A stretch of DNA of 64,000 nt from Nemertoderma westbladi (lineage: Eukaryota; Animalia; Xenacoelomorpha). The notes under the pieces were generated by a model that worked only from the letters and a program-made list of their open reading frames with translations, searched no databases and was not told the DNA's origin. Positions 4,753 to 34,875 of the stretch are shown one piece after another. The translations under genes were made by a program, and so were the position numbers. How positions within the stretch are numbered: the stretch's first letter is position 1; each line of letters begins with the position of its first letter. The stretch is taken from assembly GCA_032718475.1 (NCBI GenBank), contig JAUCBJ010006781.1, forward strand, positions 94,371 through 158,370, written 5' to 3'.

Positions 4753-4825
4753 TATCCCTGCAATTCCGCTGTATTTTGAACGTCATTATCTATCTCTATC
4801 TATCGTAATCAACTTTATCTTCCCT

Positions 4826-5231
4826 TCACCTTACGTACACTTTATTACACTGTATTTTTAACTTTATTTTTTCCAGTTCTGCATGGACTCCTGCGTTCTC
4901 CTTACGTACACCTTATGCCATTTTATTTTCAACTTTATTTTCTCCAGCTCTGCATGGACTCCTGTGTTCTCCTTGCGTACACCTTATGCCATTGTATTTT
5001 CAACTTTATTTTCTCCAGCTCTGCATGGACTGTTGCGTTCTCCATACATACACTTTATTCCACTGTATTTTCAACTTTATTTTCTCCAGTTCTGCATGGA
5101 CTCCTGTGTTCTCCTTACGTACACTTTATGCCACTGTATTTTCAACTTTATTTTCTCCAGTTCTGCATGGACTCCTGTGTTCTCCTTACGTACACCTTAT
5201 GCCATTGTATTTTCAACTTTATTTTCTCCAG
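4826..5231 (+). repeat. 71-bp tandem array of the SLC44 splice acceptor
   Basis: Pyrimidine tract + CCAG ends at 4876, 4947, 5018, 5089, 5160 and 5231 (71-bp spacing); each upstream AG is followed by TTCTGCATGGACTCCTG-like sequence resembling the exon start GTCTGCGTAGACGCTTGC. Confidence 0.93.
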
Positions 5232-7103
5232 GTCTGCGTAGACGCTTGCCCAAAGGACTACTGGATTGCCCTAACAGACATTCTAATGCAAAAAGTTGTC
5301 GCAACTTCAACTGTATTCTACGCCCAGTACTGCACAGAAACATTGGCTGCGAAAATAAGCAATCTGGAAACGCTAGTAGCAGAAGGAAAGTGTCCCGCAT
5401 ATATACTAAACAGCGAGGCCGTTCTAGGGAGATGCATACCAACGCTAATTAAAGATATACTAACATCAGGAGTTTCAACGGTTTATGAATTAAATAATGC
5501 GGAAATGACGGTGAAGACGTATCTACAAGCTCCAGGTGGATTCGAGATTGTCATCCCAGCTGGAACCGGAGGTTTATTCGAAAATATCGATGTTAACACG
5601 ATTCAACAGGCAGGAACAGCCCTAACTACTTTATTAGACTTTGAAGACATAACTGCGAAAATATTCAAAGACTTCGGCTCTTGTTGGCCTTGGATAGTGG
5701 GTTTGCTCACAATGGGTATGATTTTCGCTTTATTCTGGGTTATCATAATGCGTTGGATCGCGGGTATAGTTGTGTGGATCCAGCTGATAGCGCTGCTGTT
5801 AGGTTTGGTGTTCGGGTTGTGGTACACGTGGGAGCAATACATAGCCGTATCAGCTAGCACTGTAAACGCAACAGCGTTCGCATTCTCGACAGACTTCTCT
5901 TACTACACAGGTCGAACGGAGTTCTGGCTAGCTTGCGCGATCACAGATGGTGTCATCCTTATCATTCTAATAATTTTACTTCTGTTTCTTTGCAAAAGAA
6001 TTCGACTCGGAATACAAATGATTAAAGAAGGAAGTAAGGCGATTTCCGCTATGATGTTAACCTTATTCTACCCCTTGTTTGGTTATCTTCTTATATTGAT
6101 AATTTTCGGAGGGTTTGGTGTAATAGCTGTCTATCTAGCTAGCAATGGAACACCGTACTATACTATAAGTTCCACCGACACAAACATAGCTGATACTACT
6201 TGCGATCCCGCGACATTCTCGCCGGCAAACACCGGAGATACATGTATGTTCAAGAACTACGGGGGTGATCCAAACATATTTCGTCTTCAAATCTACAATC
6301 TTTTCGCTTTGTTCTGGAATATGAATTTTGTAATGGCTTTCACTCAAGTTTCTTTAGCAGGCGCTTTCGCTTCTTGGTTCTGGGCTTTCGTTAAGCCAGA
6401 CGATGTCCCTCTATTCCCACTCCTTTACGCCCAAGGGAGGGCGTTAAGATATCATCTGGGATCCTTGGCATTCGGTAGTCTTATCATTGCGATTGTTCAA
6501 ATGATTCGAGTTATTCTAGAATACATTGAGTTCAAAGTTAAAGACAATGATAATATCATTGCGAAGTTCGTATTGAAATGTTTGAAATGTTGTTTTTGGT
6601 GTCTTGAAAAGATTATACGTTTTCTCACAAAGAACGCCTACATAATGATAGCAGTTCATGGAAAGAATTTCTGCCGTTCTGCTAAAGATGCGTTTTTTCT
6701 TCTTCTAAGAAATATAGTAAGAGTAGCGGTTCTCAACGGAATTACAGGGTTTCTATTGCTGATCGGGAAACTCGTTGTTACGGCAGCGATTGGAGTTCTA
6801 AGTTTCTTTTGTTTCAGCGGCCAGATTAAGATTCCGTATTACAAGGTCGGAGTTGTTCCTCTTAATTACTACTACGTTCCAATGATAGTTGTTATTATCG
6901 GAACCTACGTGATCGCCTCAATGTTCTTTAGTGTCTATGATATGGCGATAGATACGCTATTTCTATGTTTTTTGGAAGACATGGAGCGGAATGATGGAAG
7001 TCCTGAGAAACCGTATTTTATGTCGAAAAGTTTGATGAGCCTAGCAGGAAAGAAAAACAAAAAAGAAAAAAAGAAAAAAGAAAAGGAACAGAAAACTGAT
7101 TAA
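5232..7103 (+). CDS. Choline transporter-like protein (SLC44A2/4/5-like), last coding exon of about 623 codons; upstream exons lie outside the window
   Basis: Starts VCVDACP after TTTTCTCCAG; multi-TM protein with SLC44 motifs AGAFASWFW, RYHLGSLAFGSLIIAIVQ, KCCFWCLEK, KNAYIMIAVHGKNFC, DTLFLCFLED..RNDGS.EKPYFMS; TAA at 7101-7103. Confidence 0.96.
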   Translation, partial: VCVDACPKDYWIALTDILMQKVVATSTVFYAQYCTETLAAKISNLETLVAEGKCPAYILNSEAVLGRCIPTLIKDILTSGVSTVYELNNAEMTVKTYLQAPGGFEIVIPAGTGGLFENIDVNTIQQAGTALTTLLDFEDITAKIFKDFGSCWPWIVGLLTMGMIFALFWVIIMRWIAGIVVWIQLIALLLGLVFGLWYTWEQYIAVSASTVNATAFAFSTDFSYYTGRTEFWLACAITDGVILIILIILLLFLCKRIRLGIQMIKEGSKAISAMMLTLFYPLFGYLLILIIFGGFGVIAVYLASNGTPYYTISSTDTNIADTTCDPATFSPANTGDTCMFKNYGGDPNIFRLQIYNLFALFWNMNFVMAFTQVSLAGAFASWFWAFVKPDDVPLFPLLYAQGRALRYHLGSLAFGSLIIAIVQMIRVILEYIEFKVKDNDNIIAKFVLKCLKCCFWCLEKIIRFLTKNAYIMIAVHGKNFCRSAKDAFFLLLRNIVRVAVLNGITGFLLLIGKLVVTAAIGVLSFFCFSGQIKIPYYKVGVVPLNYYYVPMIVVIIGTYVIASMFFSVYDMAIDTLFLCFLEDMERNDGSPEKPYFMSKSLMSLAGKKNKKEKKKKEKEQKTD

Positions 7104-7344
7104 ACTTAACTGTACTTAAATGTGTTAGCTGTTCACCAAGTCTTATAATTAACCCTAATTACACTTAATTAATTAATAAATTACTGTAGGGCAATTGGTG
7201 GATGATGCATAATGGGGTGATACGTGGATTCTAGAATGGTTAATCAACCAATTAACTGTCGGAGATCAATAGCTACCTAACGTGGAACGATTATCGGGAT
7301 AACTTCACAATTTAAAAATTAATGACATAATTAATTGATGATAA

Positions 7345-8878
7345 ACAAAAGTAAACAATTACACAAGTGAACAAGTACATAAGTGAACTAGTAAAATAGT
7401 GAACAAGTAAACTAGTACACAAGTGAACAAGTACAAAAGTGAACTAGTGAACAAGTAAACTAGTACACAAGTGAACAAGTACATAAGGGAACTAGTAAAT
7501 AAGTGAACAATTAAACTAGTACCCAAGTGAACAAGTACATAAGTGAACTAGTAAACAAGTGAGCAAGTAAACTAGTACACACGTGAACAAGTACAAAAGT
7601 GAACTAGTAAACAAGTGAACAAGTAAACTAGTACACAAGTGAACAAGTACAAAAGTGAACTAGTAAACAAGTGAGCAAGTAAACTAGTACACAAGTGAAC
7701 AAGTACAAAAGTGAACTAGTAAACAAGTGAACAAGTAAACTAGTACACAAGTGAACAAGTACATAAGTGAACTAGTAAACAAGTGAACAAGTAAACTAGT
7801 ACACAAGTGAACAAGTACATAAGTGAACTAGTAAAATAGTGAACAATTAAACTAGTACACAAGTGAACAAGTACATAAGTGAACTAGTAAAATAGTGAAC
7901 AATTAAACTAGTACCCAAGTGTTAAAGTACATAAAGTGAACTAGTAAACAAGTGAACAAGTAAACTAGTACACAAGTGAACAAGTACATAAGTGAACTAG
8001 TAAACAAGTGAACAAGTAAACTAGTACACAAGTGAACAAGTACATAAGTGAACTAGTAAACAAGTGAACAAGTAAACTAGTACACAAGTGAACAAGTACA
8101 TAAGTGAACTAGTAAAAAAGTGAACAATTAAACTAGTACCCAAGTGAACAAGTACATAAAGTGAAATAGTAAAAAAGTGAACAATTAAACTAGTACCCAA
8201 GTGAACAAGTACATAAGTGAACTAGTAAATAAGTGAACAATTAAACTAGTACACAAGTGAACAAGTACATAAGTGAACTAGTAAAAATGTGAACATTTAA
8301 ACTAGTACACAAGTGAACAATTAAACTAGTACACAAGTGAACAATTAAACTAGTACACAAGTGAACAAGTACATAAGTGAACTAGTAAAAAATTGAACAA
8401 TTAAACTAGTACACAAGTGAACAAGTACATAAGTGAACTAGTAAAAAAGTGAACATTTAAACTAGTAAACAAGTGAACAAGTAAACTAGTTCACAAGTGA
8501 ACAAGTAAACTAGTTCACAAGTGAACAAGTACATAAGTGAACAAGTAAACTAGTACACAAGTGAACAAGTACACAAGTAAACTAGTAAAAAGGTGAACAT
8601 TTAAACTAGTACACAAGTGAACAAGTACATAAGTGAACTAGTAAAAAAGTGAACAATTAAACTAGTACACAAGTGAACAAGTACACTAGTTCACAAGTGA
8701 ACAAGTAAACTAGTACACAAGTGAACAAGTACATAAGTGAACAAGTAAACTAGTACACAAGTGAACAAGTACATAAGAGAACTAATAAAAAAGTGAACAA
8801 TTAAACTAGTACACAAATAAAACAAGTAAACTAGTACACAAGTGAACAACAAAAAAAGTACACAAGTGAAACAAGTAC
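7345..8878. repeat. AT-rich satellite of 8-bp subunits (AAGTGAAC/AAGTAAAC/TAGTACAC/AAGTACAT) organised as a 56-bp higher-order unit
   Basis: Seven-octamer unit AAGTGAAC AAGTAAAC TAGTACAC AAGTGAAC AAGTACAT AAGTGAAC TAGTAAAC repeated, starting about 240 bp after the SLC44 stop. Confidence 0.93.
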
Positions 8879-11662
8879 TATACATTACTGTAATTCGCGT
8901 TGGTAACCTGTTATGACGGATTTTTATACCAATTTACATGTAAATTGTATTATAATAATTGAATTATTAATATTATTACATTGAATGTTCCGCTATGGAT
9001 TTATACTTTAGCTCTATGCGTTGAAAATTATTCACTTTGTTCAATGAAACGCACCTCTATTGTTTATTTCAATATGACTGCCATAAACTGTGCCTCTAGA
9101 TATCTTACAGTATCTTATTCGAAAGAACGCTAGTTCCTAATATTTTTCGTAACACGAAAATTAATAATCTATAAATTTTTGTAAAAACTTTAACAAAAAT
9201 TATAATATATCTTATTTCGGAAAATTATATTTAATTTCACAGAGCCGACTAGCTTGTATATTAATCGCTGTTAGCCAAATCCACCACCTCCACTCGCTTT
9301 TCATTATTTATTCTAAATTTTCATTGCGTATTAATTAATTGGCGATGGTATGATCCTACTGTAATAATAATAATTAAATCCGTGAACTTGAACTACTTTG
9401 AACAGTATAGGCTCGTATAATGTGGCTCGCCACATATAATAACAGAGTTGTCCATGAAGTGTTTTATGTAACATGTTTGAATTTTACATGTCAAAGTACA
9501 ATTAGAAAGATAACATCCATGCAGAGCATTCTGTAATTAAATGATGTAGGCCTAACTAAATATTTCGCAAATATTTTTCATACAGAATGATTGACTTTAT
9601 TAAATTTTGCATGGCCCCATGTAGGATGGAAGGGAGGTAGCAATACCAGATTATTGAGATACTAAACATACAAATTAAGAATTTTTGTATTAACAACATT
9701 ACGAAAAAAATGAGCACCAATTTAATGAGGTTTACTATCTGCCAGGAATGAATCACCTTTAATTGCCACATCGATATATATTGCCTAGAATTCGTTACAA
9801 CAAACCGGCAGTCCATTAAACTGATGTTCTAATTGAATATTAACGGTAACCAGATTAACTTTATGATACGACCACGGAAACGAACTAAATTCCAGGAACG
9901 CTATACTAATTTCCAAAGATGTTGTCGCACCGAGCCCCTATTCACTTACAGACTTAATTACGAGTTACTACTGTAGCCCGCATACTATTAGATTTCTTGA
10001 TTTCATTCCATTTTAGGATTCTAACAAATAGCATTACATGAATTTTAGTCGCCCCTTTTACCCAATGGATATTCCTGTAGGTTACGAATCTGACTTCTTA
10101 GATTAAATTATGGGTGTCGCGTCACACGTGACACATTACAAGTAACGTAATTAATAATGAATGTTAGATTCTCATCGAAACTGGTTGGCATGGCGTACGT
10201 ATGTAATTTGACAGACTCTTTTTTGTCTTCAAAGACACCAGAGTGTTTATATAAAAACACACTGGGGATTTTTATAAAAATATTTATATGAAAAAAAAAA
10301 CAATTTTCGAAAGCGAGTAAAGAAAGGCGACCTCTCGCAAATTAGTGAATTTATTAATTCCATGAGTCAAAATGAAACTAAACTTGTAACCAGAAAGGTT
10401 AATAATCTACATGACTTAAAAAACAAACTAAACAATTAACTACCGAAATACATAATTATAATAAATATATATAAATAAATATATTATAATAAATATAATT
10501 TCGCGTTTTCTGTAATCCCCCCCCCCCCCCCCCCCCGCCCTATATACAAAAATTTTATGTGTACCAGATTGTCAACAAGATAACGAATCAGTAAACAAAA
10601 TTATTTTTCATCGACTTGTTTTTTATTAATTTTTCAAATAAACTTTTCAATGAATACGAATTGGCTAAGAATACGAATCCCATTGACGCACGTGAAATAA
10701 CATGGTGTGTTGACTTTTACTATGATATCGGCTCTGTAAAAACTGGTGTAAGTAGAAAAAGGTGTATTGTTCTATTTATTCTACTTGTTTTTTTAGATAC
10801 CTGATGCAAAATACAATTTGTTTACGCCGCCTGCACTAGGGTAGTATAGGGACTTCTACACCATCTCAGATTAATGGTTGTATTTAATGCAGTAACTTTC
10901 TGTTAGATTCTTAGCAGTGATTATACGCATGGTAAAAAACAATAATAAGATGCAGAAATAAGTTTTCTTCACTTTTCTTTAAACTTTTTCAGAATTATTT
11001 TTCAGAGATAAGTTTTGTTAATTTTGCTTTGCCACTACTTTTTGTCTCGCCATTACTATGTGTTATATAGCATTCTATATTGTAAAAAGGACACACTCAA
11101 TGGCCGTAATATGTGTTACTTTTCACCGAGACTTTACAACAGCTCTGACAAGTTGATGATATGTAACAAATATTAATAAAAACAATGAATTTTAATTAAA
11201 TTATATTTATTAAAATCATAAAATTCGATATAAACAAATAAATATTTCAAAACCCACATATACTACAATACAGACAAAGTATATATTATGCCTCCATACC
11301 TGTACACCTTTATAGTATTATGTGGTGTACAACATTGAAGTGGCTACTTTATATATAACAAGAAGGAACATTTAAGACAATGTTTGCTATTAACATTTTA
11401 TATAAGGCACCAAGTTTTGCATCACCGACAATATAATAATATCGAATTTACAATTCGTTACGCTTGCGTTACCAGCTTATAAATTCAAATAGGGAAGCAA
11501 AATAAATAAATAAATATACATTTATCGACTTACATATACAAGCACTGTTTCTATTTATACATAATATATGCAACTAAAACACCAACCAAATATTATTTAT
11601 GTCAAACAAAACGTTTTTCAGTAATTCTTTTTGGATTATTATCAATTTAGAATAAAACCACG

Positions 11663-11810
11663 TACTCGGTGTGGAGTCCCGAATAGACGGGGCGACACGG
11701 CAATGAATTTTTGAAATAAAATCCACCCACAATTCTCCTATTCCAGCCACCCCGACTATTAGCATAATGAAATTTTTCCACCCAACCCGTTTATTAGGGA
11801 CTCCAGAGTA
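11663..11810. mobile_element. Short MITE, Tc1/mariner-pogo-like
   Basis: TACTC..GGAGTCCCGAATAGACGGG at the left is the near reverse complement of CCCGTTTATTAGGGACTCCAGAGTA at the right; TA at both ends. Confidence 0.6.
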
Positions 11811-12878
11811 CATATATACTTGTAAAGTACTTTACAGTGTTATTATCCTCGTATCAGTACTAGCACTCACTCGCTATGTTCTTTCTTGTAACAAACAACT
11901 CGGATTAGAACATAGAAACTATAATTAAAGTGCTACTTTTTTCCCGGTATGTATATAGTTATCATGAATTTATTCCAAAATTGTAACATTACTCAACGCC
12001 GTTAATATTAACAACGAGTTTTGTTATTTAGCACTTTACAAGTACAGTAGTACTAGTTAGTCCATTACAACCGGTACATTTAGTGATATAATATTATGTT
12101 GTAATGTCCCAATAGAGCGACTTTACAGTGCACCCGTTCAATGTAAGTGAATCTTTGGGATCGCCATGGTTACCACATAAACAAAAGTTGGTATTTATTA
12201 TTAATTGCCTGACATGACAGCCAGATAGGTCTACTGCATTACCTACTGGTAGGCGGGGTATAGCTATTAATAACCAGTAGCTATAAACTATTAACATGGC
12301 TCCAAACGCCACCATAAATATAAGCTAACTTATTTATAACATAATTTATGTCATTTTTACATTTATTTATACAGCAACTAATATAATTTGTGCAGTTTCT
12401 ATCACTTATAATGTATATGTACAATAATTTCGTAATGTTAAAATTTTGGAATAAAACTACATACATACTTGTTGCAAAGTACTTTACAGTGTTCTGATCC
12501 TCGTGGCTTTATTTTCACTCACTCACTAACGTTCGTTCGTGTAACAAAGCCACTCGAATCATCACACTGTGAAGTGCTACTTTACACACAACTATGTAAA
12601 TAGTTTTTATTTACAAATATTTTTTTCGTACAATAAAACCCTTTAAATTAATTTTTCACAAAATTGGTATTATATATATATAAATCTTGAGTGAATAAAA
12701 ACCGTTAAATATGCAAATGGATTGTGAAACGAATTTTGCAGCAAAAATTAAGGAAAAAAGAACTGCCTTATTATTTATTAATTGCCACGAACATATTTAC
12801 AATATTAATTTAATTTATTTTTCTCTTTTCTATTTATTTATTTTTATACTAAATATTATTTATATCAATTTTGATTGA

Positions 12879-13023
12879 TTATTTGGTTGATATGTCTCCC
12901 CTGACCACATCCGTCGGTGCATTGTATTGTAACCATGACAACTGCATTCCTCTCTTGAACTGCTCGAAGAGAACAAACATACAAATATTCCAGGTCCCCA
13001 AACGCATAAACGACGGCATAAAC
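12879..13023 (-). CDS. Uncoupling protein (UCP2/3-like, SLC25), last coding exon
   Basis: TTTCCAG|G TTT ATG CCG; encodes (G)FMPSFMRLGTWNICMFVLFEQFKR...ISTK*, matching the UCP C-terminal helix; phase 2 agrees with the upstream exon. Confidence 0.92.
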
Positions 13024-15000
13024 CTGGAAATAAAGTAAACAATGACATAAACCTGGAAATAAAGTAAACAATGACATAAACCTGGAAATAAAGTAAACAA
13101 TGACATAAACCTGGAAATAAAGTAAACAATGACATAAAGCTAGGAAATAAAGTAAACAATGACATAAACCTGGAAATAAAGTAAACAATGACATAAACCT
13201 GGAAATAAAGTAAACAATGACATAAAGCTAGGAAATAAAGTAAACAATGACATAAAGCTAGGAAATAAAGTAAACAATGACATAAACCTGGAAATAAAGT
13301 AAACAATGACATAAACCTGGAAATAAAGTAAACAATGACATAAACCTGGAAATAAAGTAAACAATGACATAAACCTGGAAATAAAGTAAACAATGACATA
13401 AACCTGGAAATAAAGTAAACAATGACATAAACCTGGAAATAAAGTAAACAATGACATAAACATGGAAATAAAGTAAACAATGACATAAACCTGGAAATAA
13501 AGTAAACAATGACATAAACCTGGAAATAAAGTAAACAATGACATAAACCTGGAAATAAAGTAAACAATGACATAAACCTGGAAATAAAGTAAACAATGAC
13601 ATAAACCTGGAAATAAAGTAAACAATGACATAAACCTGGAAATAAAGTAAACAATGACATAAACCTGGAAATAAAGTAAACAATGACATAAACCTGGAAA
13701 TAAAGTAAACAATGACATAAACCTGGAAATAAAGTAAACAATGACATAAAGCTAGGAAATAAAGTAAACAATGACATAAACCTGGAAATAAAGTAAACAA
13801 TGACATAAACCTGGAAATAAAGTGAACAATGACATAAACCTGGAAATAAAGTAAACAATGACATAAACCTGGAAATAAAGTAAACAATGACATAAACCTG
13901 GAAATAAAGTTAACAATGACATAAACCTGGAAATAAAGTAAACAATGACATAAACCTGGAAATAAAGTAAACAATGACATAAACCTGGAAATAAAGTAAA
14001 CAATGACATAAACCTGGAAATAAAGTAAACAATGACATAAACCTGGAAATAAAGTAAACAATGACATAAACCTGGAAATAAAGTAAACAATGACATAAAC
14101 CTGGAAATAAAGTAAACAATGACATAAACCTGGAAATAAAGTAAACAATGACATAAACCTGGAAATAAAGTAAACAATGACATAAACCTGGAAATAAAGT
14201 AAACAATGACATAAACCTGGAAATAAAGTAAACAATGACATAAACCTGGAAATAAAGTAAACAATGACATATACCTGGAAATAAAGTAAACAATGACATA
14301 AACATGGAAATAAAGTAAACAATGACATAAACCTGGAAATAAAGTAAACAATGACATAAACCTGGAAATAAAGTAAACAATGACATAAACCTGGAAATAA
14401 AGTAAACAATGACATAAACCTGGAAATAAAGTAAACAATGACATAAACCTGGAAATAAAGTAAACAATGACATAAACCTGGAAATAAAGTGAACAATGAC
14501 ATAAACCTGGAAATAAAGTGAACAATGACATAAACCTGGAAATAAAGTAAACAATGACATAAACCTGGAAATAAAGTAAACAATGACATAAACCTGGAAA
14601 TAAAGTAAACAATGACATAAACCTGGAAATAAAGTAAACAATGACATAAACCTGGAAATAAAGTAAACAATGACATAAACCTGGAAATAAAGTAAACAAT
14701 GACATAAACCTGGAAATAAAGTAAACAATGACATAAAGCTAGGAAATAAAGTAAACAATGACATAAACCTGGAAATAAAGTAAACAATGACATAAACCTG
14801 GAAATAAAGTAAACAATGACATAAACCTGGAAATAAAGTAAACAATGACATAAACCTGGAAATAAAGTAAACAATGACATAAACCTGGAAATAAACCTGG
14901 AAATAAAGTAAACAATGACATAAACCTGGAAATAAAGTAAACAATGACATAAACCTGGAAATAAAGTAAACAATGACATAAAGCTAGGAAATAAAGTGAA
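13015..15000 (-). repeat. 29-bp tandem array (about 68 copies) of the UCP last-exon acceptor junction
   Basis: Minus-strand unit GTTTATGTCATTGTTTACTTTATTTCCAG; the real exon starts GTTTATGCCGTCGTTTA. Degenerate copies continue to about 15160 and at about 18850-18895. Confidence 0.96.
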
Positions 15001-15167
15001 CAAAAGCAAAAATACGGAAAATTAGGTAAAGAACAGCTTAAAGTTTGAGAATAATGTCACCGATGACATTAAAATGGAATATAAAGTAAATAAGGATTAA
15101 ACTTGGAAAAAATCAAACAATGGCATAAAACTGTAAATTAAAACTGAGAAATAAAGTTAACTTAATG

Positions 15168-15184
<17 letters not shown>

Positions 15185-15209
<25 letters not shown>

Positions 15210-18200
15210 ATAAATTCCCGGCTTACGCCCCGGTGGCTATATTCACTTAACCGCAAAATAAAATGTTCGTGCACTGGTTAAAAGAAGAACAATATGTGAC
15301 AGAGGGTAGTATATGAATTAAAAATATTTAAGGAAGATGCCAAATCATGACTTTAAGATTAATATAGATTACCATATTATATGCCATAACGTTCCATTAC
15401 TATACAATATCTATTATTATCGCGTATCTATTTATTAACGAATATATGAAAAACCCCGTCACTTGTAAACAAAATAGGATAGTGTACAGGTAAATTATTG
15501 CACAAATGTAAAAAATTAAACAATTTATAATATATAGAGCGATAGTGTAATAAAATCATAGAGCGCGTTATATAATAACGTTCAACTAAATAAATGATTA
15601 TATACTTTTTAAACAAAAATTAACGATCATATTACGATCATTACAATTAAAGTCGAAAATAGTGTCATAAAATATCAGTCACTTAGTTATTTTTTATGGT
15701 AATTAATCTAAATAAGAATCAAATAGTAACTGTAATAGTTAGTAACAAGAAAAAGTGAGGCTTAATAAAAATATTTATAATTCGATTAAATTGTATCAGA
15801 AAATAAATAAAATATGAAACAAGCACGCATACATGTACTGTATGTTATGATGGATGCTAGATGCACAAACTGTTGTATATATCTATACCAATATACCAAC
15901 TATAAAATAATAATAACAATATCATTAACAATATATATATATATATTAATCTCATAGATTATATGATAAAAAGAAGACTTTATGGTTAGAAACGGTGTCT
16001 AAATCAGTCTGTAAAAGTTTGATGTGTAGGTTTAGTCTAGCCCAAAGAACGATAATATTGTAGTATGTTTGGATGTATGGTCATTATTGCAGTTGTTTAG
16101 GATTGATCGGAAATAAGAGCTATGAAACTTTTCTTTGAAGGTTAGGGGGATGTTTCCAGCTTTAGTTCTGACCTTTGCTCCTTTTAACACCTTCTTCACA
16201 CAGTATTGTGAGGTAGCAATACTAGTGAGTGTCGGGAGACCTTCTTGCCACGATAAAAGTTCATGGGGTGGTGCGTCCAGTGGTTCAGCTATTTCTGATT
16301 GTGGGGACATTGAACACGCATCTATAGTTGCATAGTCTGTACTTTCATCAGTATCACTCTCAAAGGTAAATTTACTGCTCCTGCTCTTCTTTTTGTAACG
16401 TTTCGACTTTTTCTTTTTTGACTTTTTGTTGCTGTTTTTGTTATTATTCAAGATAGTTTCTTTGGTGATACCTTCATTCCTTAGTTGTGTGTTGTCTGAG
16501 TGAGTAGTCTCTGAGTCTGAGTCATTGTGATCTTTTCCCTGCATGGGATTGGTCGAATTACAGCAAAATCTACAGGTAGATGTAGGTTGTTGTGTCTGTA
16601 ACTCGTCTAGGCCGTTTTCCATGGCATCCACCTTATTTTGTGTTACTCGCAATTGGCTGTTTATTGTTTTCACTTCGACTTGCAGGTTGGCTACAAGGTC
16701 CACAAGTTGGAAAAGGCTGAAGGTGTCGAGGGTTCCTATATGCACCCTTTTCTTAAAAATGGGTGTAATTGCGGAGCTTTCAGCAACCAGTGCAAACTCA
16801 GCCACGTCAGCTGCTAGTTCATCAATGGAGCGACGGTTTATTGCACTTATGTTGAGGCTTGGAGTGCTCCCCAGAATATTTGTCTTTATATGTTCAAAGA
16901 GCATCTTTTGTATGTTATTTAAAGATTCAAGGCCTATAGGTAATAGTGCCCGAATAAGTATGTCTTTAGGGTTCCTTAGAATATTCGAGTCGATTAGAAT
17001 TTTTAATACATCCAGTGCTGTGTTTGCTTTTCGCAATTTTGTGTGGCTCCCTTGGAAGCCAGCGTTGTGGATTTCATTCTGGGTGGATTCGTTTTGAGAT
17101 CGGGTGTGTGGGGCATGGTGACCCTGGGATTTATTTGTTGGTACTCGTCCAGTTGTGTTCTCTGCAGATTTAGTTTTTTGTTGTTTGCCGGTCTTTATTC
17201 CAAAGTTTGGGCCAGTGTTTAAGAATCTTTCATCTTGAGGTGCATTTGGTTTCATTACCGATTTTCTTTCTATGGAAGTTGCCATCCAAACTCTACCCTG
17301 TGCACATTCGTTATTTGTCATTTTCTTGGCAAAAACGTTATTTTCTTTAGGGAAAGCAAGCATATAGGAATACACACACACGAAAATCCCACAGTCGACG
17401 TTATTTGTTTGCTTTGGGAATTGAGACATGTTTGGGGCTTGTATTGGGCGCCATTGGTCAAAGTTTAGACTTGAGGGTAAAGTTTTCGTAGAGGGGGTCA
17501 GGTTATCAATTGTGTTAAGGACGTTGCATAGTGCTTTTGTTGTGTTTGTGTAATATGGGTTTCCCATTGGACAGAGAGTATAAATTTCTTTGTCCTTAGG
17601 GATAGCGACATGTAATACAAAGTGCCCTATTGGAGTATTAGAATATTGTCTACACTCTGGGATTAGCAAAATTTCTATGTCTGGTCGTTTGTATCTACTA
17701 CTGGCAAATTTGACCAAGGAAAACATATCACTTAGTGGTGTACTGAGCTTGGTCGAAAACTCTGTAGGTAAAATGCCTACACGAAAATTTGTGCTTTCCT
17801 CTAGGAGGTAGAGAACGGAGTTTACTAGTGCATCGTTTATACATGTACCTGGGCTCAACAAAATCATATCGTCCTTTGTAAGTTTGGTTAAAATATTCTC
17901 CATGTTTGTTGGCTTGCACTTTGTATTTAATAGAGTCAAATATTTCTCACTAGCCAGGAAACGTTTAATTTTAACTCGTTTTTGATCTTCATCACTGTTG
18001 TCTATCGGTGGGTGGTACGTTTCATACAAAAGTTCGATGGGATTGTGGTCGTCATCGCTTAGGAGATCATCTCGGTTCCTTGGCTTGATCTTCTCCGAAA
18101 CGTCACCTCTGTGTTCGGCGGATTCGGCCAGGTTCCGTGGGTTTATCTTCTCCGAATCGTCTCCACGGTGTTCGGCAGAATCAGCCCGGTCCAGTGGATT

Positions 18201-18812
18201 TACCTTCTCCGAAATGTCACCGTGGTGTTCGGCGTGATTGATCCGATCCTGTGGGTTTATCTTTTCAAGATCGTCGCTGCGGTGTTTGGCGGAATTGACC
18301 TGGTTCCATGGGTTGATCTTCTCTGAATCATTGCCATCGTGTTCGGGGGAAATGGCACGGTTCCGTGGGTTTGTCTTCTCAGAAAGTTCTCCACGGTGAT
18401 CGGTGGAATCGGCACAAATCTGTTGGTTTATCTTCGCCAAATCGTCACCGCAGTGTTCGGCTGAAACAGCCTGCTCTCGTGGGTTTATCTTCTCCAAATC
18501 GCCAATGCGTCGTTGTTCGGCAGAAACGTCCCAGTCCTGTGAGTTTATCTTCTCTGAATCGCCGCTACGGTGTTCGGCAGAATCGGCCCTGTCCCGTGGG
18601 TTTATCCTCTCTGAATCGTCACCACGGTGTTCAGTGGAAACGGCCCGGTTTTGTGGGTTTATCTTCTTTGTGTTGGTGCCTGGTGGTGGTGTTCTCGGTA
18701 TCTCCCATTTAACCACCAGAGGCGATTTCATCGTGTGGCTTAATGTAGTAATGCCGTAATGTCGTAAGTAGTTATATTTAAACAGGATCGTTACAGCGCA
18801 TCAATTAGTAGA
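15185..18812 (-). mobile_element. Polyadenylated single-ORF retroposon (or retrocopy) in a UCP intron
   Basis: T35 run at 15171-15205 (A-tail on minus); candidate TSD TA+T14 at 15169-15184 and 18813-18828 followed by AA (TTTT/AA site); degenerate 29-mer copies on both sides. Confidence 0.7.
16032..18731 (-). CDS. 899-aa intronless protein: about 20-aa N-terminal repeats, Ulp1/SENP (peptidase C48)-like domain, coiled-coil region resembling non-LTR ORF1, basic/Ser tail
   Basis: Motifs CINDALVNSVLYLL, GHFVLHV (His) and PKQTNNVDCGIFVC (oxyanion Gln, catalytic Cys); repeats of the form EKINPRDRADSAEHRGDDS; heptads LVDLVANLQVEVKTINSQLRVTQNKVDAMENGL. Confidence 0.85.
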   Translation of the reverse strand: MKSPLVVKWEIPRTPPPGTNTKKINPQNRAVSTEHRGDDSERINPRDRADSAEHRSGDSEKINSQDWDVSAEQRRIGDLEKINPREQAVSAEHCGDDLAKINQQICADSTDHRGELSEKTNPRNRAISPEHDGNDSEKINPWNQVNSAKHRSDDLEKINPQDRINHAEHHGDISEKVNPLDRADSAEHRGDDSEKINPRNLAESAEHRGDVSEKIKPRNRDDLLSDDDHNPIELLYETYHPPIDNSDEDQKRVKIKRFLASEKYLTLLNTKCKPTNMENILTKLTKDDMILLSPGTCINDALVNSVLYLLEESTNFRVGILPTEFSTKLSTPLSDMFSLVKFASSRYKRPDIEILLIPECRQYSNTPIGHFVLHVAIPKDKEIYTLCPMGNPYYTNTTKALCNVLNTIDNLTPSTKTLPSSLNFDQWRPIQAPNMSQFPKQTNNVDCGIFVCVYSYMLAFPKENNVFAKKMTNNECAQGRVWMATSIERKSVMKPNAPQDERFLNTGPNFGIKTGKQQKTKSAENTTGRVPTNKSQGHHAPHTRSQNESTQNEIHNAGFQGSHTKLRKANTALDVLKILIDSNILRNPKDILIRALLPIGLESLNNIQKMLFEHIKTNILGSTPSLNISAINRRSIDELAADVAEFALVAESSAITPIFKKRVHIGTLDTFSLFQLVDLVANLQVEVKTINSQLRVTQNKVDAMENGLDELQTQQPTSTCRFCCNSTNPMQGKDHNDSDSETTHSDNTQLRNEGITKETILNNNKNSNKKSKKKKSKRYKKKSRSSKFTFESDTDESTDYATIDACSMSPQSEIAEPLDAPPHELLSWQEGLPTLTSIATSQYCVKKVLKGAKVRTKAGNIPLTFKEKFHSSYFRSILNNCNNDHTSKHTTILSFFGLD

Positions 18813-19100
18813 TATTTTTTTTTTTTTTAATTACGGGCTAGTGTTGTATAAGACTGGAAATAAAGTAACCAATAGCAAAAAACTGAAAATAAATTAAGAG
18901 TAATGTATCGGTCAGACTAAGCGATCGTTATCGGGTTGATTAGAATTGCTTGAATCAATTAATGTGGTAATAAGTGATTAAATAATTTGCAACAGAAGGT
19001 GCGCTCAAGGTTCGTTCGTTTACTAACCTCTCTGAGTGCAAACTGAAACGATTCACTTTACTTACAAATATATAAAACCTATAAATATTATGTAACTGAC

Positions 19101-19383
19101 CCTTTGTAAAACGTAAGGAGGCCGTTTTCTTTAAACATTTTCACGGTGCAGTCTATCAAACCGCGATACTGCCCGGGGGACGAATTCATGTAACGAGTTT
19201 TAATAACATCAACGGGAGACGCGACGCAAGTAGTAAACAGCCCTGCTGAGAAAGCCGAGACGAAATGGCAGGGAAAGTTATCCGACATGAGTTTCCGCTT
19301 CAGAATGGCCTCCTTTACGAGATCGTAACACACCAATTCGCAGCAGTTAACAACAGCGTTACGGGCCATATTGGGTGTCGTAC
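19101..19383 (-). CDS. UCP-like internal exon
   Basis: TTACAG|GT ACG ACA CCC; encodes (G)[24 protein letters not shown]...[14 protein letters not shown]...FYKG; donor GG|GTCAGT; 283 nt, phase 1 to phase 2. Confidence 0.95.
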
Positions 19384-22300
19384 CTGTAATAATTACCAAA
19401 ATAGTTACATGTATGTCGTACCTGTAATAAATACCAAAATAGTTACCATGTGTGACGTACCTGTAATAAATACCAAAATAGTTACCCTGTGTGTCGTACC
19501 TGTAATAAATACCAAAATAATTACCATGTGTGTCGTACCTGTAATAATTACCAAAATAGTTACCATGTGTGTCGTACCTGTAATAATTACCAAAATAATT
19601 ACCATGTGTGTCGTACCTGTAACAATTACCAAAATAGTTACCATGTGTGTCGTACCTGTAATAATTACCAAAATAGTTACATGTATGTCGTACCTGTAAT
19701 AAATACCAAAATAGTTACCATGTGTGACGTACCTGTAATAATTACCAAAATAGTTACCATGTGTGTCGTACCTGTAACAATTACCAAAATAATTACCATC
19801 TGTGTCGTACCTGTAACAATTATCAAAATAGTTACCATGTGTGACGTACCTGTAATAAATACCAAAATAGTTACCCTGTGTGTCGTACCTGTAATAATTA
19901 CCAAAATAATTACCATGTGTGTCGTACCTGTAACAATTACCAAAATAGTTACCATGTGTGTCGTACCTGTAATAATTACCAAAATAGTTACATGTATGTC
20001 GTACCTGTAATAAATACCAAAATAGTTACCATGTGTGTCGTACCTGTAATAATTACCAAAATAGTTACCATGTGTGTCGTACCTGTAATAATTACCAAAA
20101 TAGTTACATGTATGTCGTACCTGTAATAAATACCAAAATAGTTACCATGTGTGTCGTACCTGTAATAATTACCAAAATAGTTACCATGTGTGTCGTACCT
20201 GTAACAATTACCAAAATAGTTACCATGTGTGTCGTACCTGTAACAATTACCAAAATAATTACCATCTGTGTCGTACCTGTAACAATTACCAAAATAGTTA
20301 CCATGTGTGTCGTACCTGCAATAATTACCAAAATAGTTAACATGTGTGTCGTACCTGTAACAATTACCAAAATAGTTACATGTGTGTCGTACCTGTAATA
20401 ATTACCAAAATAGTTACATGTGTGTCGTACCTGTAATAATTACCAAAATAATTACCATGTGTGTCGTACCTGTAACAATTACCAAAATAGTTACCATGTG
20501 TGTCGTACCTGTAATAATTACCAAAATAATTACCATGTGTGTCGTACCTGTAACAATTACCAAAATAGTTACATGTGTGTCGTACCTGTAATAATTACCA
20601 AAATAATTACCATGTGTGTCGTACCTGTAACAATTACCAAAATAGTTACCATGTGTGTCGTACCTGTAACAATTACCAAAATAGTTACCATGTGTGTCGT
20701 ACCTGTAATAATTACCAAAATAGTTAACATGTGTGTCGTACCTGTAAAAATTACCAAAATAGTTACATGTGTGTCGTACCTGTAATAATTACCAAAATAG
20801 TTACCATGTGTGTCGTACCTGTAATAAATACCAAAATAATTACCATGTGTGTCGTACCTGTAACAATTACCAAAATAGTTAGCATGTGTGTCGTACCTGT
20901 AATAATTACCAAAATAATTACCATCTGTGTCGTACCTGTAACAATTATCAAAATAGTTACCATGTGTGTCGTACCTGTAATAATTACCAAAATAGTTACC
21001 ATGTGTGTTGTACCAGTAACAATTACCAAAATAGTTACCATGTGTGTCGTACCTGTAACAATTACCAAAATAGTTACCCTGTGTGTCGTACCTGTAACAA
21101 TTACCAAAATAGTTACCATGTGTGTCGTACCTGTAATAAATACCAAAATAGTTACCATGTGTGACGTACCTGTAATAAATACCAAAATAATTACCATGTG
21201 TGTCGTACCTGTAACAATTACCAAAATAGTTACCATGTGTGTCGTACCTGTAATAATTACCAAAATAGTTACCATGTGTGTCGTACCTGTAACAATTACC
21301 AAAATAGTTACCATGTGTGTCGTACCTGTAATAATTACCAAAATAGTTACCATGTGTGTCGTACCTGTAACAATTACCAAAATAGTTACCATGTGTGTCG
21401 TACCTTGTATTCTTGTATTCTTGTATATATATTTAGTGATTTAAAATTCACACGGTAGAACTCGTAGAGCACACCAAATTAAGTACATAAACCTAAAAAC
21501 TGCAGTATATCAAATAATTAAGTACGGGCCTACAGTTGTAAAAATTACGCAAATAAGGCACAAAATGCACATAACTAATAATAAGAAAAAAAACATTACA
21601 GTAAAAATATACATTGTATACAAATTGTGCAAAAACTGGCTAATTCTTCTGTTTAAATGGACAATGCAATGAAAGAAATGTAGTCCATTTAATTTATTTT
21701 AATACTTGTACCTTAGTTAGGGAGTTTGACTGGATAGGTCTCGAGTCAGTGTATCCAGGCGAGCCGGGACAATCTGGGACGGTGAAAAGATATGCATCAA
21801 GATGCTTTTTAAAAGTCTCCAGTGCGCAGCATGTCAAGTCTCTTATATGTTTTGGGATGGTGTTAAATAATTTAGGTCCAATAACACAAAAACTGTTGTC
21901 TATAAGAGAGGAGACGCGACATGTAGCCTTACTTGCAAGGGACGGTATGGTACAAAGTCGACCTCTGCGGATGTTTTTTGTAGATTTAATTTTATAGGTT
22001 AAATCTGAAATATTTGGAACTCTATTTTCGATAATTTTCCATGTATATATTATTATATACCTTTCTCTCCTCCGCTGTACCTGTAACAATTACCAAAATA
22101 GTTACCATGTGTGTCGTACCTGTAATAAATACCAAAATAATTACCATGTGTGTCGTACCTGTAACAATTATCAAAATAGTTACCATGTGTGTCGTACCTG
22201 TAACAATTACCAAAATAGTTACCATGTGTGTCGTACCTGTAATAAATACCAAAATAGTTACCATGTGTGTCGTACCTGTAATAAATACCAAAATAATTAC

Positions 22301-25300
22301 CATGTGTGTCGTACCTGTAACAATTACCAAAATAGTTACCATGTGTGTCGTACCTGTAATAATTACCAAAATAATTACCATGTGTGTCGTACCTGTAACA
22401 ATTACCAAAATAGTTACCATGTGTGTCGTACCTGTAATAAATACCAAAATAGTTACCATGTGTGACGTACCTGTAATAAATACCAAAATAATTACCATGT
22501 GTGTCGTACCTGTAACAATTACCAAAATAGTTATCATGTGTGTCGTACCTGTAATAATTACCAAAATAGTTACCATGTGTGTCGAACCTGTAACAATTAC
22601 CAAAATAGTTACCATGTGTGTCGTACCTGTAATAATTACCAAAATAGTTACCATGTGTGTCGTACCTGTAATAATTACCAAAATAGTTACCATGTGTGTC
22701 GTACCTGTAACAATTACCAAAATAGTTACCATGTGTGTCGTACCTGTAACAATTACCAAAATAGTTACCATGTGTGTCGTACCTGTAATAATTACCAAAA
22801 TAGTTACCATGTGTGTCGTACCTGTAACAATTACCAAAATAGTTACCATGTGTGTCGTACCTGTAATAATTACCAAAATAGTTACCATGTGTGTCGTACC
22901 TGTAATAATTACCAAAATAGTTACCATGTGTGTCGTACCTGTAATAATTACCAAAATAGTTACCATGTGTGTCGTACCTGTAATAAATACCAAAATAATT
23001 ACCATGTGTGTCGTACCTGTAACAATTACCAAAATAGTTATCATGTGTGTCGTACCTGTAATAATTACCAAAATAGTTACCATGTGTGTCGAACCTGTAA
23101 CAATTACCAAAATAGTTACCATGTGTGTCGTACCTGTAATAATTACCAAAATAGTTACCATGTGTGTCGTACCTGTAATAATTACCAAAATAGTTACCAT
23201 GTGTGTCGTACCTGTAACAATTACCAAAATAGTTACCATGTGTGTCGTACCTGTAATAATTACCAAAATAGTTACCATGTGTGTCGTACCTGTAATAAAT
23301 ACCAAAATAATTACCATGTGTGTCGTACCTGTAACAATTACCAAAATAGTTACCATGTGTGTCGTACCTGTAATAATTACCAAAATAATTACCATGTGTG
23401 TCGTACCTGTAACAATTACCAAAATAGTTACCATGTGTGTCGTACCTGTAATAATTACCAAAATAGTTACCATGTGTGTCGTACCTGTAACAATTACCAA
23501 AATAGTTACCATGTGTGTCGTACCTGTAATAATTACCAAAATAGTTACCATGTGTGTCGTACCTGTAATAATTACCAAAATAGTTACCATGTGTGTCGTA
23601 CCTGTAACAATTACCAAAATAGTTACCATGTGTGTCGTACCTGTAATAATTACCAAAATAGTTACCATGTGTGTCGTACCTGTAATAATTACCAAAATAA
23701 TTACCATGTGTGTCGTACCTGTAACAATTACCAAAATAGTTACCATGTGTGTCGTACCTGTAATAATTACCAAAATAGTTACCATGTGTGTCGTACCTGT
23801 AACAATTACCAAAATAGTTACCATGTGTGTCGTACCTGTAATAATTACCAAAATAGTTACCATGTGTGTCGTACCTGTAATAAATACCAAAATAATTACC
23901 ATGTGTGTCGTACCTGTAACAATTACCAAAATAGTTACCATGTGTGTCGTACCTGTAATAATTACCAAAATAGTTACCATGTGTGTCGTACCTGTAATAA
24001 ATACCAAAATAATTACCATGTGTGTCGTACCTGTAACAATTACCAAAATAGTTACCATGTGTGTCGTACCTGTAATAATTACCAAAATAATTACCATGTG
24101 TGTCGTACCTGTAATAATTACCAAAATAGTTACCATGTGTGTCGTACCTGTAATAATTACCAAAATAGTTACCATGTGTGTCGTACCTGTAACAATTACC
24201 AAAATAGTTACCATGTGTGTCGTACCTGTAATAATTACCAAAATAGTTACCATGTGTGTCGTACCTGTAATAAATACCAAAATAATTACCATGTGTGTCG
24301 TACCTGTAACAATTACCAAAATAGTTACCATGTGTGTCGTACCTGTAATAATTACCAAAATAATTACCATGTGTGTCGTACCTGTAACAATTACCAAAAT
24401 AGTTACCATGTGTGTCGTACCTGTAACAATTACCAAAATAGTTACCATGTGTGTCGTACCTGTAATAATTACCAAAATAGTTACCATGTGTGTCGTACCT
24501 GTAACAATTACCAAAATAGTTACCATGTGTGTCGTACCTGTAACAATTACCAAAATAGTTACCATGTGTGTCGTACCTGTAATAATTACCAAAATAGTTA
24601 CCATGTGTGTCGTACCTGTAATAAATACCAAAATAATTACCATGTGTGTCGTACCTGTAACAATTACCAAAATAGTTACCATGTGTGTCGTACCTGTAAT
24701 AATTACCAAAATAATTACCATGTGTGTCGTACCTGTAACAATTACCAAAATAGTTACCATGTGTGTCGTACCTGTAATAATTACCAAAATAGTTACCATG
24801 TGTGTTGTACCAGTAACAATTACCAAAATAGTTACCATGTGTGTCGTACCTGTAACAATTACCAAAATAGTTACCCTGTGTGTCGTACCTGTAATAATTA
24901 CCAAAATAATTACCATGTGTGTTGTACCAGTAACAATTACCAAAATAGTTACCATGTGTGACGTACCTGTAATAATTACCAAAATAGTTACATGTATGTC
25001 GTACCTGTAATAAATACCAAAATAGTTACATGTGTGTCGTACCTGTAATAATTACCAAAATAATTACCATGTGTGTCGTACCTGTAACAATTACCAAAAT
25101 AGTTACCATGTGTGTCGTACCTGTAACAATTACCAAAATAGTTACCATGTGTGTCGTACCTGTAATAATTACCAAAATAGTTAACATGTGTGTCGTACCT
25201 GTAACAATTACCAAAATAGTTACCATGTGTGTCGTACCTGTAACAATTACCAAAATAGTTACCATGTGTGTCGTACCTGTAACAATTACCAAAATAGTTA

Positions 25301-27675
25301 CCATGTGTGTCGTACCTGTAACAATTACCAAAATAGTTACCATGTGTGTCGTACCTGTAACAATTACCAAAATAATTACCATGTGTGTCGTACCTGTAAC
25401 AATTACCAAAATAGTTACCATGTGTGTCGTACCTGTAACAATTACCAAAATAGTTACCATGTGTGTCGTACCTGTAATAATTACCAAAATAGTTACCATG
25501 TGTGTTGTACCAGTAACAATTACCAAAATAGTTACCATGTGTGTCGTACCTGTAACAATTACCAAAATAGTTACCCTGTGTGTCGTACCTGTAATAATTA
25601 CCAAAATAGTTACATGTATGTCGTACCTGTAATAATTACCAAAATAGTTACCATGTGTGTTGTACCAGTAACAATTACCAAAATAGTTACCATGTGTGTC
25701 GTACCTGTAATAATTACCAAAATAGTTACCATGTGTGTTGTACCAGTAACAATTACCAAAATAGTTACATGTGTGACGTACCTGTAACAATTACCAAAAT
25801 AGTTACCCTGTGTGTCGTACCTGTAATAATTACCAAAATAATTACCATCTGTGTCGTACCTGTAACAATTACCAAAATAGTTACCATGTGTGTCGTACCT
25901 GTAATAATTACCAAAATAATTACCATGTGTGTCGTACCTGTAACAATTACCAAAATAGTTACCATGTGTGTCGTACCTGTAATAATTACCAAAATAGTTA
26001 CCATGTGTGTTGTACCAGTAACAATTACCAAAATAGTTACCATGTGTGTCGTACCTGTAACAATTACCAAAATAATTACCATGTGTGTCGTACCTGTAAC
26101 AATTACCAAAATAGTTACATGTGTGTCGTACCTGTAATAATTACCAAAATAATTACCATGTGTGTCGTACCTGTAACAATTACCAAAATAGTTACCATGT
26201 GTGTCGTACCTGTAACAATTACCAAAATAGTTACCCTGTGTGTCGTACCTGTAATAATTACCAAAATAATTACCATGTGTGTCGTACCTGTAACAATTAC
26301 CAAAATAATTACCATGTGTGTCGTACCTGTAACAATTACCAAAATAGTTACCATGTGTGTCGTACCTGTAACAATTACCAAAATAGTTACCCTGTGTGTC
26401 GTACCTGTAATAATTACCAAAATAATTACCATGTGTGTCGTACCTGTAACAATTACCAAAATAATTACCATGTGTGTCGTACCTGTAACAATTACCAAAA
26501 TAGTTACATGTGTGTCGTACCTGTAATAATTACCAAAATAGTTACCATGTGTGTCGTACCTGTAATAATTACCAAAATAGTTACCATGTGTGTCGTACCT
26601 GTAATAATTACCAAAATAATTACCATGTGTGTCGTACCTGTAACAATTACCAAAATAGTTACCATGTGTGTCGTACCTGTAACAATTACCAAAATAGTTA
26701 CCCTGTGTGTCGTACCTGTAATAATTACCAAAATAATTACCATGTGTGTCGTACCTGTAATAATTACCAAAATAGTTACCATGTGTGTCGTACCTGTAAT
26801 AATTACCAAAATAGTTACCATGTGTGTCGTACCTGTAATAATTACCAAAATAGTTACCATGTGTGTCGTACCTGTAATAATTACCAAAATAGTTACCATG
26901 TGTGTCGTACCTGTAATAATTACCAAAATAATTACCATGTGTGTCGTACCTGTAATAATTACCAAAATAATTACCATGTGTGTCGTACCTGTAATAATTA
27001 CCAAAATAGTTACCCTGTGTGTCGTACCTGTAATAATTACCAAAATAATTACCATGTGTGTCGTACCTGTAACAATTACCAAAATAATTACCATGTGTGT
27101 CGTACCTGTAACAATTACCAAAATAGTTACCATGTGTGTCGTACCTGTAACAATTACCAAAATAGTTACCCTGTGTGTCGTACCTGTAATAATTACCAAA
27201 ATAATTACCATGTGTGTCGTACCTGTAACAATTACCAAAATAATTACCATGTGTGTCGTACCTGTAACAATTACCAAAATAGTTACATGTGTGTCGTACC
27301 TGTAACAATTACCAAAATAGTTACCCTGTGTGTCGTACCTGTAATAATTACCAAAATAATTACCATGTGTGTCGTACCTGTAATAATTACCAAAATAGTT
27401 ACCATGTGTGTCGTACCTGTAATAATTACCAAAATAGTTACCATGTGTGTCGTACCTGTAATAATTACCAAAATAGTTACCATGTGTGTCGTACCTGTAA
27501 TAATTACCAAAATAGTTACCATGTGTGTCGTACCTGTAATAATTACCAAAATAATTACCATGTGTGTCGTACCTGTAATAATTACCAAAATAATTACCAT
27601 GTGTGTCGTACCTGTAATAATTACCAAAATAGTTACCCTGTGTGTCGTACCTGTAATAATTACCAAAATAGTTAA
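19374..27675 (-). repeat. 39-bp tandem array (about 195 copies) of the UCP acceptor junction, filling almost the whole intron
   Basis: Minus-strand unit GTACGACACACATGGTAACTATTTTGGTAATTATTACAG; the real exon begins GTACGACACCCAATATGG. Interrupted at 21406-22076. Confidence 0.97.
21406..22076 (-). mobile_element. 5'-truncated LINE (CR1/L2 group) inserted in the 39-bp array
   Basis: ORF2 C-terminal signature RRRERYIIIYTWKI...GPKLFNTIP..IR...FKKHLD..L..VPD.P; 3' tail of ATACAAGA repeats; GTACCT duplicated at 21400-21405 and 22077-22082. Confidence 0.85.
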
Positions 27676-27760
27676 TATTCATATTGTGTGGCGGACTTTT
27701 TGTACATGTATCAAAATAATTACAGAATGTCGCCGGATTATATTCTGGAACTTTACTAAC

Positions 27761-27964
27761 CCTTCCACAAGCCTCTTCGTATACCTTCGTCTCGAGCTAT
27801 TGAGGAATAGGCCTGCCAGGTTTTACGGTACCGTCTAGGCTGTCCAGGCACAAAAGCCTGAAACCGAACTTTAACAACGTCAGTTGGCTGAGCGAATAGG
27901 ACAGCTGAAGAGCCGGTAGTGACGCCGGCTAGAATGCGGATAAGTATGTCGACGTTCTTCAATT
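27761..27964 (-). CDS. UCP-like internal exon
   Basis: TTTTCTAG|AA TTG; encodes [28 protein letters not shown]...[10 protein letters not shown] with the carrier signature PxDxxKxR; donor G|GTTAGT; 204 nt, phase 1 to phase 1. Confidence 0.95.
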
Positions 27965-28760: not shown

Positions 28761-28888
28761 CTTTATTATTATTCAATTGGGTTAACTTGGTTGTGTAGAT
28801 TTCCTTAACTCGGTCATATAAACCAATTCGTATCGAGGCGAAACACATTTGTCGATGGAGCCCAGCTATTAAACCGTTATACATTCCT
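28761..28888 (-). CDS. UCP-like internal exon (not in the ORF track)
   Basis: GTTACAG|A GGA ATG TAT AAC; translates [32 protein letters not shown], close to the UCP2 [24 protein letters not shown] motif; donor AAG|GTAATA; phase 1 matches the next exon. Confidence 0.93.
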
Positions 28889-32885: not shown

Positions 32886-32902
32886 CACAAGGCTACTGCC
32901 GG

Positions 32903-34803: not shown

Positions 34804-34875
34804 GTTCAAATATTTCAGGTCTATATATATGAATGCTCACGAACAGAAACTATGTCCTTTTCATGTGATGCTCAC

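Follow-up and report, generated by a model that had tools for sequence, protein, structure and literature searches.

How can an intron come to hold scores of copies of its own 3' splice junction, and how might the correct acceptor still be chosen among them? The question is raised by a 64,000-nt stretch of nuclear DNA from Nemertoderma westbladi (contig JAUCBJ010006781.1, hereafter the window), in which three introns of two adjacent genes end in tandem arrays of decoy acceptors. One gene encodes an SLC44 choline transporter-like protein (CTL) and the other an SLC25 uncoupling protein-like protein (UCP). All counts given here come from this window, a single sequence, and were set against homologous proteins and the literature. 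We propose, with a probability of about 0.72, that the arrays are minisatellites of the type named 'mirage', which would have arisen by chance duplications of a splice junction followed by ordinary minisatellite turnover, and whose decoys are predicted to be skipped.

Each array is made of head-to-tail copies of the tail of the intron, ending in CAG, joined to a decayed copy of the head of the following exon (Table 1). The 71-, 29- and 39-bp units are mutually unrelated, and a blastn-short search returned a single match outside the array to which a unit belongs, namely a degenerate 29-bp copy at 18854-18873. To score copies of a junction, a probe of 15 intron and 15 exon nt was compared with the upstream 600 nt, with 200 shuffles for each probe. 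In the upstream intron, the probes of the three array acceptors reached 25-27 matches of 30 nt, compared with shuffle maxima of 19-22. Those of the other three acceptors (two in the UCP gene, one in a neighboring zinc-finger gene) matched at 14-18 of 30 nt, which is not above chance. Donor probes detected copies at none of five donors, the donor regions being unique.

A decoy acceptor was defined as a position matching the last 14 nt of the real acceptor at no fewer than 12 positions. The CTL intron contains five such decoys, all with CAG (5/5) and none with the AG/GT junction (0/5; the slash marks the intron-exon boundary). In the intron that bears the 29-bp array, 68 decoys were counted over the whole intron, 61 with CAG and 59 with AG/GT. 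The intron with the 39-bp array holds 195, and CAG is kept in 188, each time followed by GT (188/188). The AG is absent from 7 of 195 and 7 of 68 decoys, respectively: AG-killing variants occur in both UCP arrays, where the AG and GT positions are conserved no more than the remainder of the unit. The exon part of the unit is identical to the exon start at 12-13 of 18 nt in CTL and mostly at 14 of 18 nt in the 29-mer; in the 39-mer, nine exact nt are followed by a gapped match reaching exon position 26. Decoy heads can be told from the real ones by nt 10 in the 39-mer, nt 8 in the 29-mer and nt 1 in the 71-mer. In all cases exon-head identity exceeds chance (p 7e-4 to 2e-5). Each unit is derived from a splice junction.

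These data bear on a preliminary description of the locus, which had defined the unit as a pyrimidine tract, CAG and the first 9-18 nt of the exon. The junction origin stands, whereas the exon part proved to be decayed and the intron tail, 80% pyrimidine in the 71-bp and 75% in the 29-bp unit, is only 55% pyrimidine in the 39-bp unit. The rest of that anatomy was borne out: three arrays with unrelated units each end at an acceptor, all three real exons begin with GT, and three of the five acceptors of the two genes are affected (three of six when the zinc-finger gene is included).

All three real acceptors are supported by homology, with the first exon base at exactly 5232 (+), 13023 (-) and 19383 (-). 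Homology to CTL proteins begins at about residue 115 of the relatives, exactly at the last CAG, and the N-terminal ~115 amino acids were not found within the window. The four UCP exons, separated by GT-AG introns of 796, 8,377 and 6,077 nt, join into a single open frame that matches UCP proteins. A search of the 35 kb upstream (28889-64000, -) did not recover the first ~75 codons, or upstream exon(s), of this gene; they may be split into short exons, have diverged, or be located past the zinc-finger gene, outside the window. That both genes have intact frames and that homology stops exactly at the last AG support the reading of the arrays as mirages.

The 39-bp array retains traces of its own origin. 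At the donor end of its host intron (27760-19384) lies the oldest junction copy, itself undeleted and comprising the intron tail and a 26-nt exon head, whose original CAG has decayed and which places the ancestral acceptor ~64 nt from the donor. The founding 39-mer copy therefore sat in an intron of ~65 nt. This intron has since grown to 8,377 nt, 99% of which is the array and one insertion, and 110 nt now separate the donor from the first intact decoy. Of the units in the array, 179 measure 39 nt and 15 measure 38 nt; there are 29 distinct unit sequences plus one insertion-bearing unit, and both block duplications and regional variants are seen. The insertion, ~670 bp long, is presumably a 3' fragment of a non-LTR retrotransposon (long interspersed nuclear element, LINE); comparison with the Atlas returned unnamed eukaryotic clusters only.

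The last UCP intron, which carries the 29-bp array, has a second likely insertion, flanked by degenerate 29-bp copies. It includes, on the same strand as UCP, an intronless open reading frame of 922 codons (16032-18800, -) with a Ulp1/C48 protease-like domain (PF02902, E 1.7e-5) and a 57-bp coding tandem repeat, and with the 35-nt A run downstream. No homologue of this reading frame was detected at E<=0.001 among 274 candidates. The segment appears to have arrived by retroposition, and its reading frame is possibly a mobile-element gene.

Degenerate units had been described as lying on the donor side of both UCP arrays and homogeneous ones next to the exon. Old copies do occur towards the donor, where the 29-mer has several and the 39-mer has one (near 27690-27720), but no gradient of homogeneity runs within the 39-bp array (Spearman -0.09, p 0.2, 194 units) or the 29-bp array (Spearman -0.06, p 0.61, 66 units). 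Nor is the fifth of the UCP arrays closest to the exon the most uniform. As in concerted evolution, the inner UCP units differ from their consensus by an average of ~0.2-1.5 nt, and the exon head and the donor-most copies have diverged. CpG decay was considered as a cause of the divergence of the decoy heads and is not supported, the observed/expected CpG ratio being 0.86-1.1 outside the arrays and in exons.

How might such arrays form? After a short duplication across an acceptor, the whole exon would still be joined to the downstream copy, and unequal exchange or slippage would then expand and homogenize the units. The working acceptor tail would belong to the last unit, the function of acceptor passing each time to the newest copy. 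Because the live tail is part of the last unit, decoys would keep their CAG without needing a function of their own, and the real exon head, being outside the homogenized register, would diverge from the decoy heads. In support of this scheme, the arrays bear the signatures of turnover: blocks have been duplicated, some variants are regional, 29 unit types occur and insertions interrupt the arrays. The window as a whole is rich in such sequences: the 14 tandem arrays listed by Tandem Repeats Finder cover 22,088 of 64,000 bp (34.5%), and six of the nine large arrays (units of 13, 56, 57, 52, 16 and 33 bp) are at no modelled junction.

The last AG alone would be followed by a full exon, with its enhancers and a donor or poly(A) site, and would for this reason outcompete acceptors followed by short (<=26 nt), decayed exon heads. 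Such a choice is expected from experiments on duplicated 3' splice sites. When the upstream copy carried a short exon piece, splicing in vitro went exclusively to the downstream site, according to the available part of one study (PMC5389562), and the portion available of another gives a preference of 6:1 to 25:1 for the downstream site because the short exon lacks enhancers (PMC1450099). GAA/GAG motifs number 4 and 5 in the first 100 nt of the two UCP exons and are absent from the adjacent array. The first 100 nt of the CTL exon contain none, and the CTL decoys lack a G at +1. Any leaky use of a decoy is predicted to yield mostly frameshifts or stops: the decoy AGs whose use would be both in frame and stop-free amount to 0/188 in the 39-bp array, 7/61 in the 29-bp array and 1/5 in CTL. 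The value of 0/188 is due to the exon-adjacent unit (19384-19421, -): this variant is 38 nt long and contains an in-frame stop, even though the consensus unit of 39 nt is an open frame. Masking of the decoys by RNA structure was rejected, since the real acceptors are as paired as the decoys or more so (unpaired fraction, real versus decoys: 0.73 vs 0.82, 0.42 vs 0.40 and 0.50 vs 0.62, with at most 30 decoys sampled per array).

Several points weigh against this account. Use of the last AG in this organism is something we infer from other systems. Delaying the downstream exon raises the use of an upstream acceptor, as stated in the accessible part of PMC1450099, and the first intact 39-bp decoy lies ~8.3 kb ahead of the real acceptor. 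Two of the three array exons are terminal, so that no downstream donor can define them. Finally, under uniform seeding in the window, three of nine large arrays would span one of six acceptors with P ~7e-6, a post hoc value whose null ignores the purging of exon-internal duplications and the shortness of ancestral introns; pure chance placement is therefore insufficient without selection or a seeding bias.

In another explanation, which this last value would favor, a lineage-specific mutational process such as splicing- or cDNA-linked repair preferentially duplicates AG/GT acceptor junctions and inflates introns from the 3' end genome-wide. It would fit the presence of copies at 3/6 acceptors as opposed to 0/5 donors and the GT start of all three array exons, which the other three exons do not share. 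However, the difference between acceptors and donors is not significant (Fisher p 0.2 for 3/6 vs 0/4, the doubtful fifth donor being omitted), nor is the association with GT (3/3 vs 0/3, p 0.1), and the G at +1 is forced in the UCP exons by conserved Gly codons, the GT in CTL by a Val codon. Moreover, a 46-nt duplication readily overlaps the junction in a ~65-nt ancestral intron, and amphioxus mirages occur at both boundaries, as far as the available text of PMC3087553 goes. We regard such a directed process as unlikely. Equally doubtful is its fuller form, in which directional amplification of acceptor junctions inflates short ancestral introns ~100-fold in an intron-poor lineage, and the spliceosome either passes over as many as 188 perfect acceptors, beginning with one that lies 110 nt from the donor and is transcribed 8 kb ahead, or splices stepwise; if true, it would make this genome a natural assay of 3' splice site commitment. 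Of the genome-level process put forward in the preliminary description, the inflation holds for two UCP introns; an acceptor-specific process at the level of the genome is neither shown nor excluded by the window, which alone establishes no new process.

The decoys could also be working ratchet points, the long UCP introns being removed stepwise with each AG/GT regenerating a donor. Recursive splice sites, or ratchet points, have an AG directly followed by GT within long introns, and are single sites with strong regenerated donors. The present arrays are instead repeated in tandem, and the donors that they would regenerate are weaker in UCP and missing in CTL. AG/GT is found in 188/188 AG-bearing 39-bp decoys and in 59/61 29-bp decoys, and the regenerated 39-bp donor agrees with the consensus at 6/9 positions, the decoy head being identical to the real head over those six bases. 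By contrast, the 29-bp donor reaches 5/9, all four real donors reach 7/9, and the CTL decoys have GT in 0/5 cases. Retention of AG/GT is explained by homogenization with the live acceptor, the AG and GT positions do mutate, and the correct junction would regenerate the same donor, at the risk of exon skipping. Stepwise splicing, one of the two modes named in the preliminary description, can therefore not be the general answer: it is impossible for CTL and weak for the 29-mer, leaving the 39-mer with its 6/9 donor, and we hold it to be very improbable. Slightly less credible still is a regulatory sink, in which unproductive splicing to decoys would tune UCP and CTL output by copy number. Nearly all decoy choices are unproductive, and a stop is brought into frame by the 38-nt unit next to the exon, but 38-nt units make up 15 of the 194 and 8 of the 36 nearest the exon, so that a frameshift on the exon side is unremarkable. 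As for the assembly, long near-identical arrays are error-prone and the copy number may be off. That the arrays or their lengths are artefacts is nevertheless what we believe least, given the 29 unit types with regional clustering and block duplications, the insertion with its 6-bp flanking duplication, and the periodic degenerate copies at 15056-15157 and 18866-18895, on both sides of the second insertion.

The host genes have features of their own. About 85% of the SLC44 coding sequence lies in one 1.87-kb exon (5232-7103, +). In vertebrate SLC44 orthologues, the region matching this exon is divided by many introns, and the one-exon layout suggests that this lineage has lost introns heavily. 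A quick tree set the CTL protein beside 37 other rows, none of which shares more than 49% identity with it; its long branch is unplaced and falls outside the clades starred in the tree (lancelets, vertebrates, ambulacrarians and molluscs/annelids/nemerteans). A metagenome scan covering 7 of 64 parts recovered one distant CTL (L001, 43% identity), encoded by a single uninterrupted open reading frame and thus of no help in comparing introns.

In the neighboring zinc-finger gene, a 16-bp array (37521-38142) lies in mid-intron and not at a junction. At the donor of that intron (39792-39808, -), a 15-nt stretch is perfectly reverse-complementary to the first bases of the following exon (36977-36991, +), so that the 5' end of the intron could pair with the head of the downstream exon. 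Elsewhere in the window (42130-43107 and 29374-29913) lie foldback-type elements, with 230-nt and 92-nt inverted arms that hold 49-bp tandem units, and with inverted 15-17-bp arrays.

Table 1 Arrays, exons and inserted sequences in the 64,000-nt window, in order of position.
Feature	Positions	Strand	Remarks
13-bp array	1-4758		no modelled splice site; 66 nt separate its end from the 71-bp array in the CTL intron
71-bp array	4825-5237	+	5 decoys (CAG/TT or CAG/CT) and the real acceptor (5231/5232) of the CTL exon
Terminal coding exon, SLC44 choline transporter-like (CTL)	5232-7103	+	623 codons; PF04515, E 9e-102
56-bp array	7349-8877		no modelled splice site
Last coding exon, UCP (SLC25 uncoupling protein-like)	12880-13023	-	acceptor bears the 29-bp array
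29-bp array, homogeneous core	13017-15003	-	ends at a UCP acceptor; first exon base 13023
Degenerate older 29-bp junction copies	15004-15160 (copies at 15056-15157)	-	spacing 28-30 nt
Likely inserted element, ~3.7 kb	15171-18850	-	between degenerate 29-bp copies; ends in a 35-nt A run
Two degenerate donor-side 29-bp copies	18854-18895	-	both with CAG
UCP internal exon, 283 nt	19101-19383	-	donor GT at 19100; acceptor bears the 39-bp array
39-bp array	19375-27674	-	ends at a UCP acceptor; first exon base 19383
~670-bp insertion in the 39-bp array	21406-22075	-	flanked by a 6-bp duplication at a decoy AG/GT
Oldest undeleted junction copy, ~46 nt	27670-27718	-	tail and 26-nt exon head; score 47, maximum 40 in 500 shuffles
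UCP exon, 204 nt	27761-27964	-	donor GT at 27760; own acceptor without array
UCP exon, 128 nt	28761-28888	-	acceptor without array
52-bp array	32902-34804		no modelled splice site
C2H2 zinc-finger gene, two long exons	36122-41096	-	PF13894
33-bp array	57403-59447		no modelled splice site

Since the arrays are of a known kind, their value lies in being an extreme example. The decoy-filled 8,377-nt intron sets co-transcriptional 'first acceptor wins' against exon-dependent choice of the acceptor, and two of the three cases concern terminal exons. In addition, this intron records copy by copy how one of ~65 nt became one of 8.4 kb as the functional acceptor passed to the newest copy.

Repeats spanning splice sites had been thought known in isolated cases only, but a named type exists, the mirage (PMC3087553, in its available portion). 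In the open-access literature searched, mirages were described only for amphioxus and for human F7, and no genome-wide survey was found. The human F7 intron 7 carries a 37-bp variable number tandem repeat (VNTR) in which, as here, the end unit spans the true junction and the exon-adjacent site wins; the identical pseudo-sites are functional but silent (PMC1557585, accessible part). That array is on the donor side, with 5-9 sites, and its winner is transcribed first, whereas in the present arrays, on the acceptor side, the winner must be the last transcribed. The beta-globin 3'D series and wt14 substrates (PMC5389562, PMC1450099, as described in their available portions) are similar in opposing an upstream acceptor with a short exon piece to a full downstream exon. 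These engineered substrates have two sites and were assayed in human extracts in vitro; the present arrays, from an invertebrate, offer 6-196 sites over at most 8.3 kb. The Rogers model (cited in the accessible text of PMC3087553), in which an intron is gained when an exonic proto-splice site is duplicated in tandem, requires the donor and the acceptor both to come from copies of a single exonic unit. It was rejected, the donors being unique (0/5 probes) and the units carrying an intron tail.

The closest likeness is to the mirages of amphioxus, reported in Adh3, the globins BflGb6 and BflGb9, troponin C and PGBD5 (PMC3087553, PMC3902484). According to the available portions of these reports, which also underlie the comparison below, mirages lie at 5' and 3' boundaries, have units of 10-160 bp, and show concerted evolution, length instability and normal mRNA. 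The units described here likewise span the intron-exon boundary of their host, measure 29, 39 and 71 bp, and in many copies keep the splice signal. Shared with amphioxus are boundary-spanning units (of the acceptor type in BflGb6), many of which keep AG or GT, the occurrence in several genes of one genome, and concerted evolution that excludes the boundary copies. Unlike in amphioxus, the host is not a lancelet and, within this window, acceptors only are involved; normal splicing and length polymorphism have been shown for the amphioxus mirages, whereas the present arrays are known from one genomic sequence. Finally, the copies quoted for amphioxus are 2-7, compared with up to 195 decoys here and one intron that is 99% array and insertion. 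The structure is thus of a known kind, the amphioxus mirage type, but unusually large and extreme in size.

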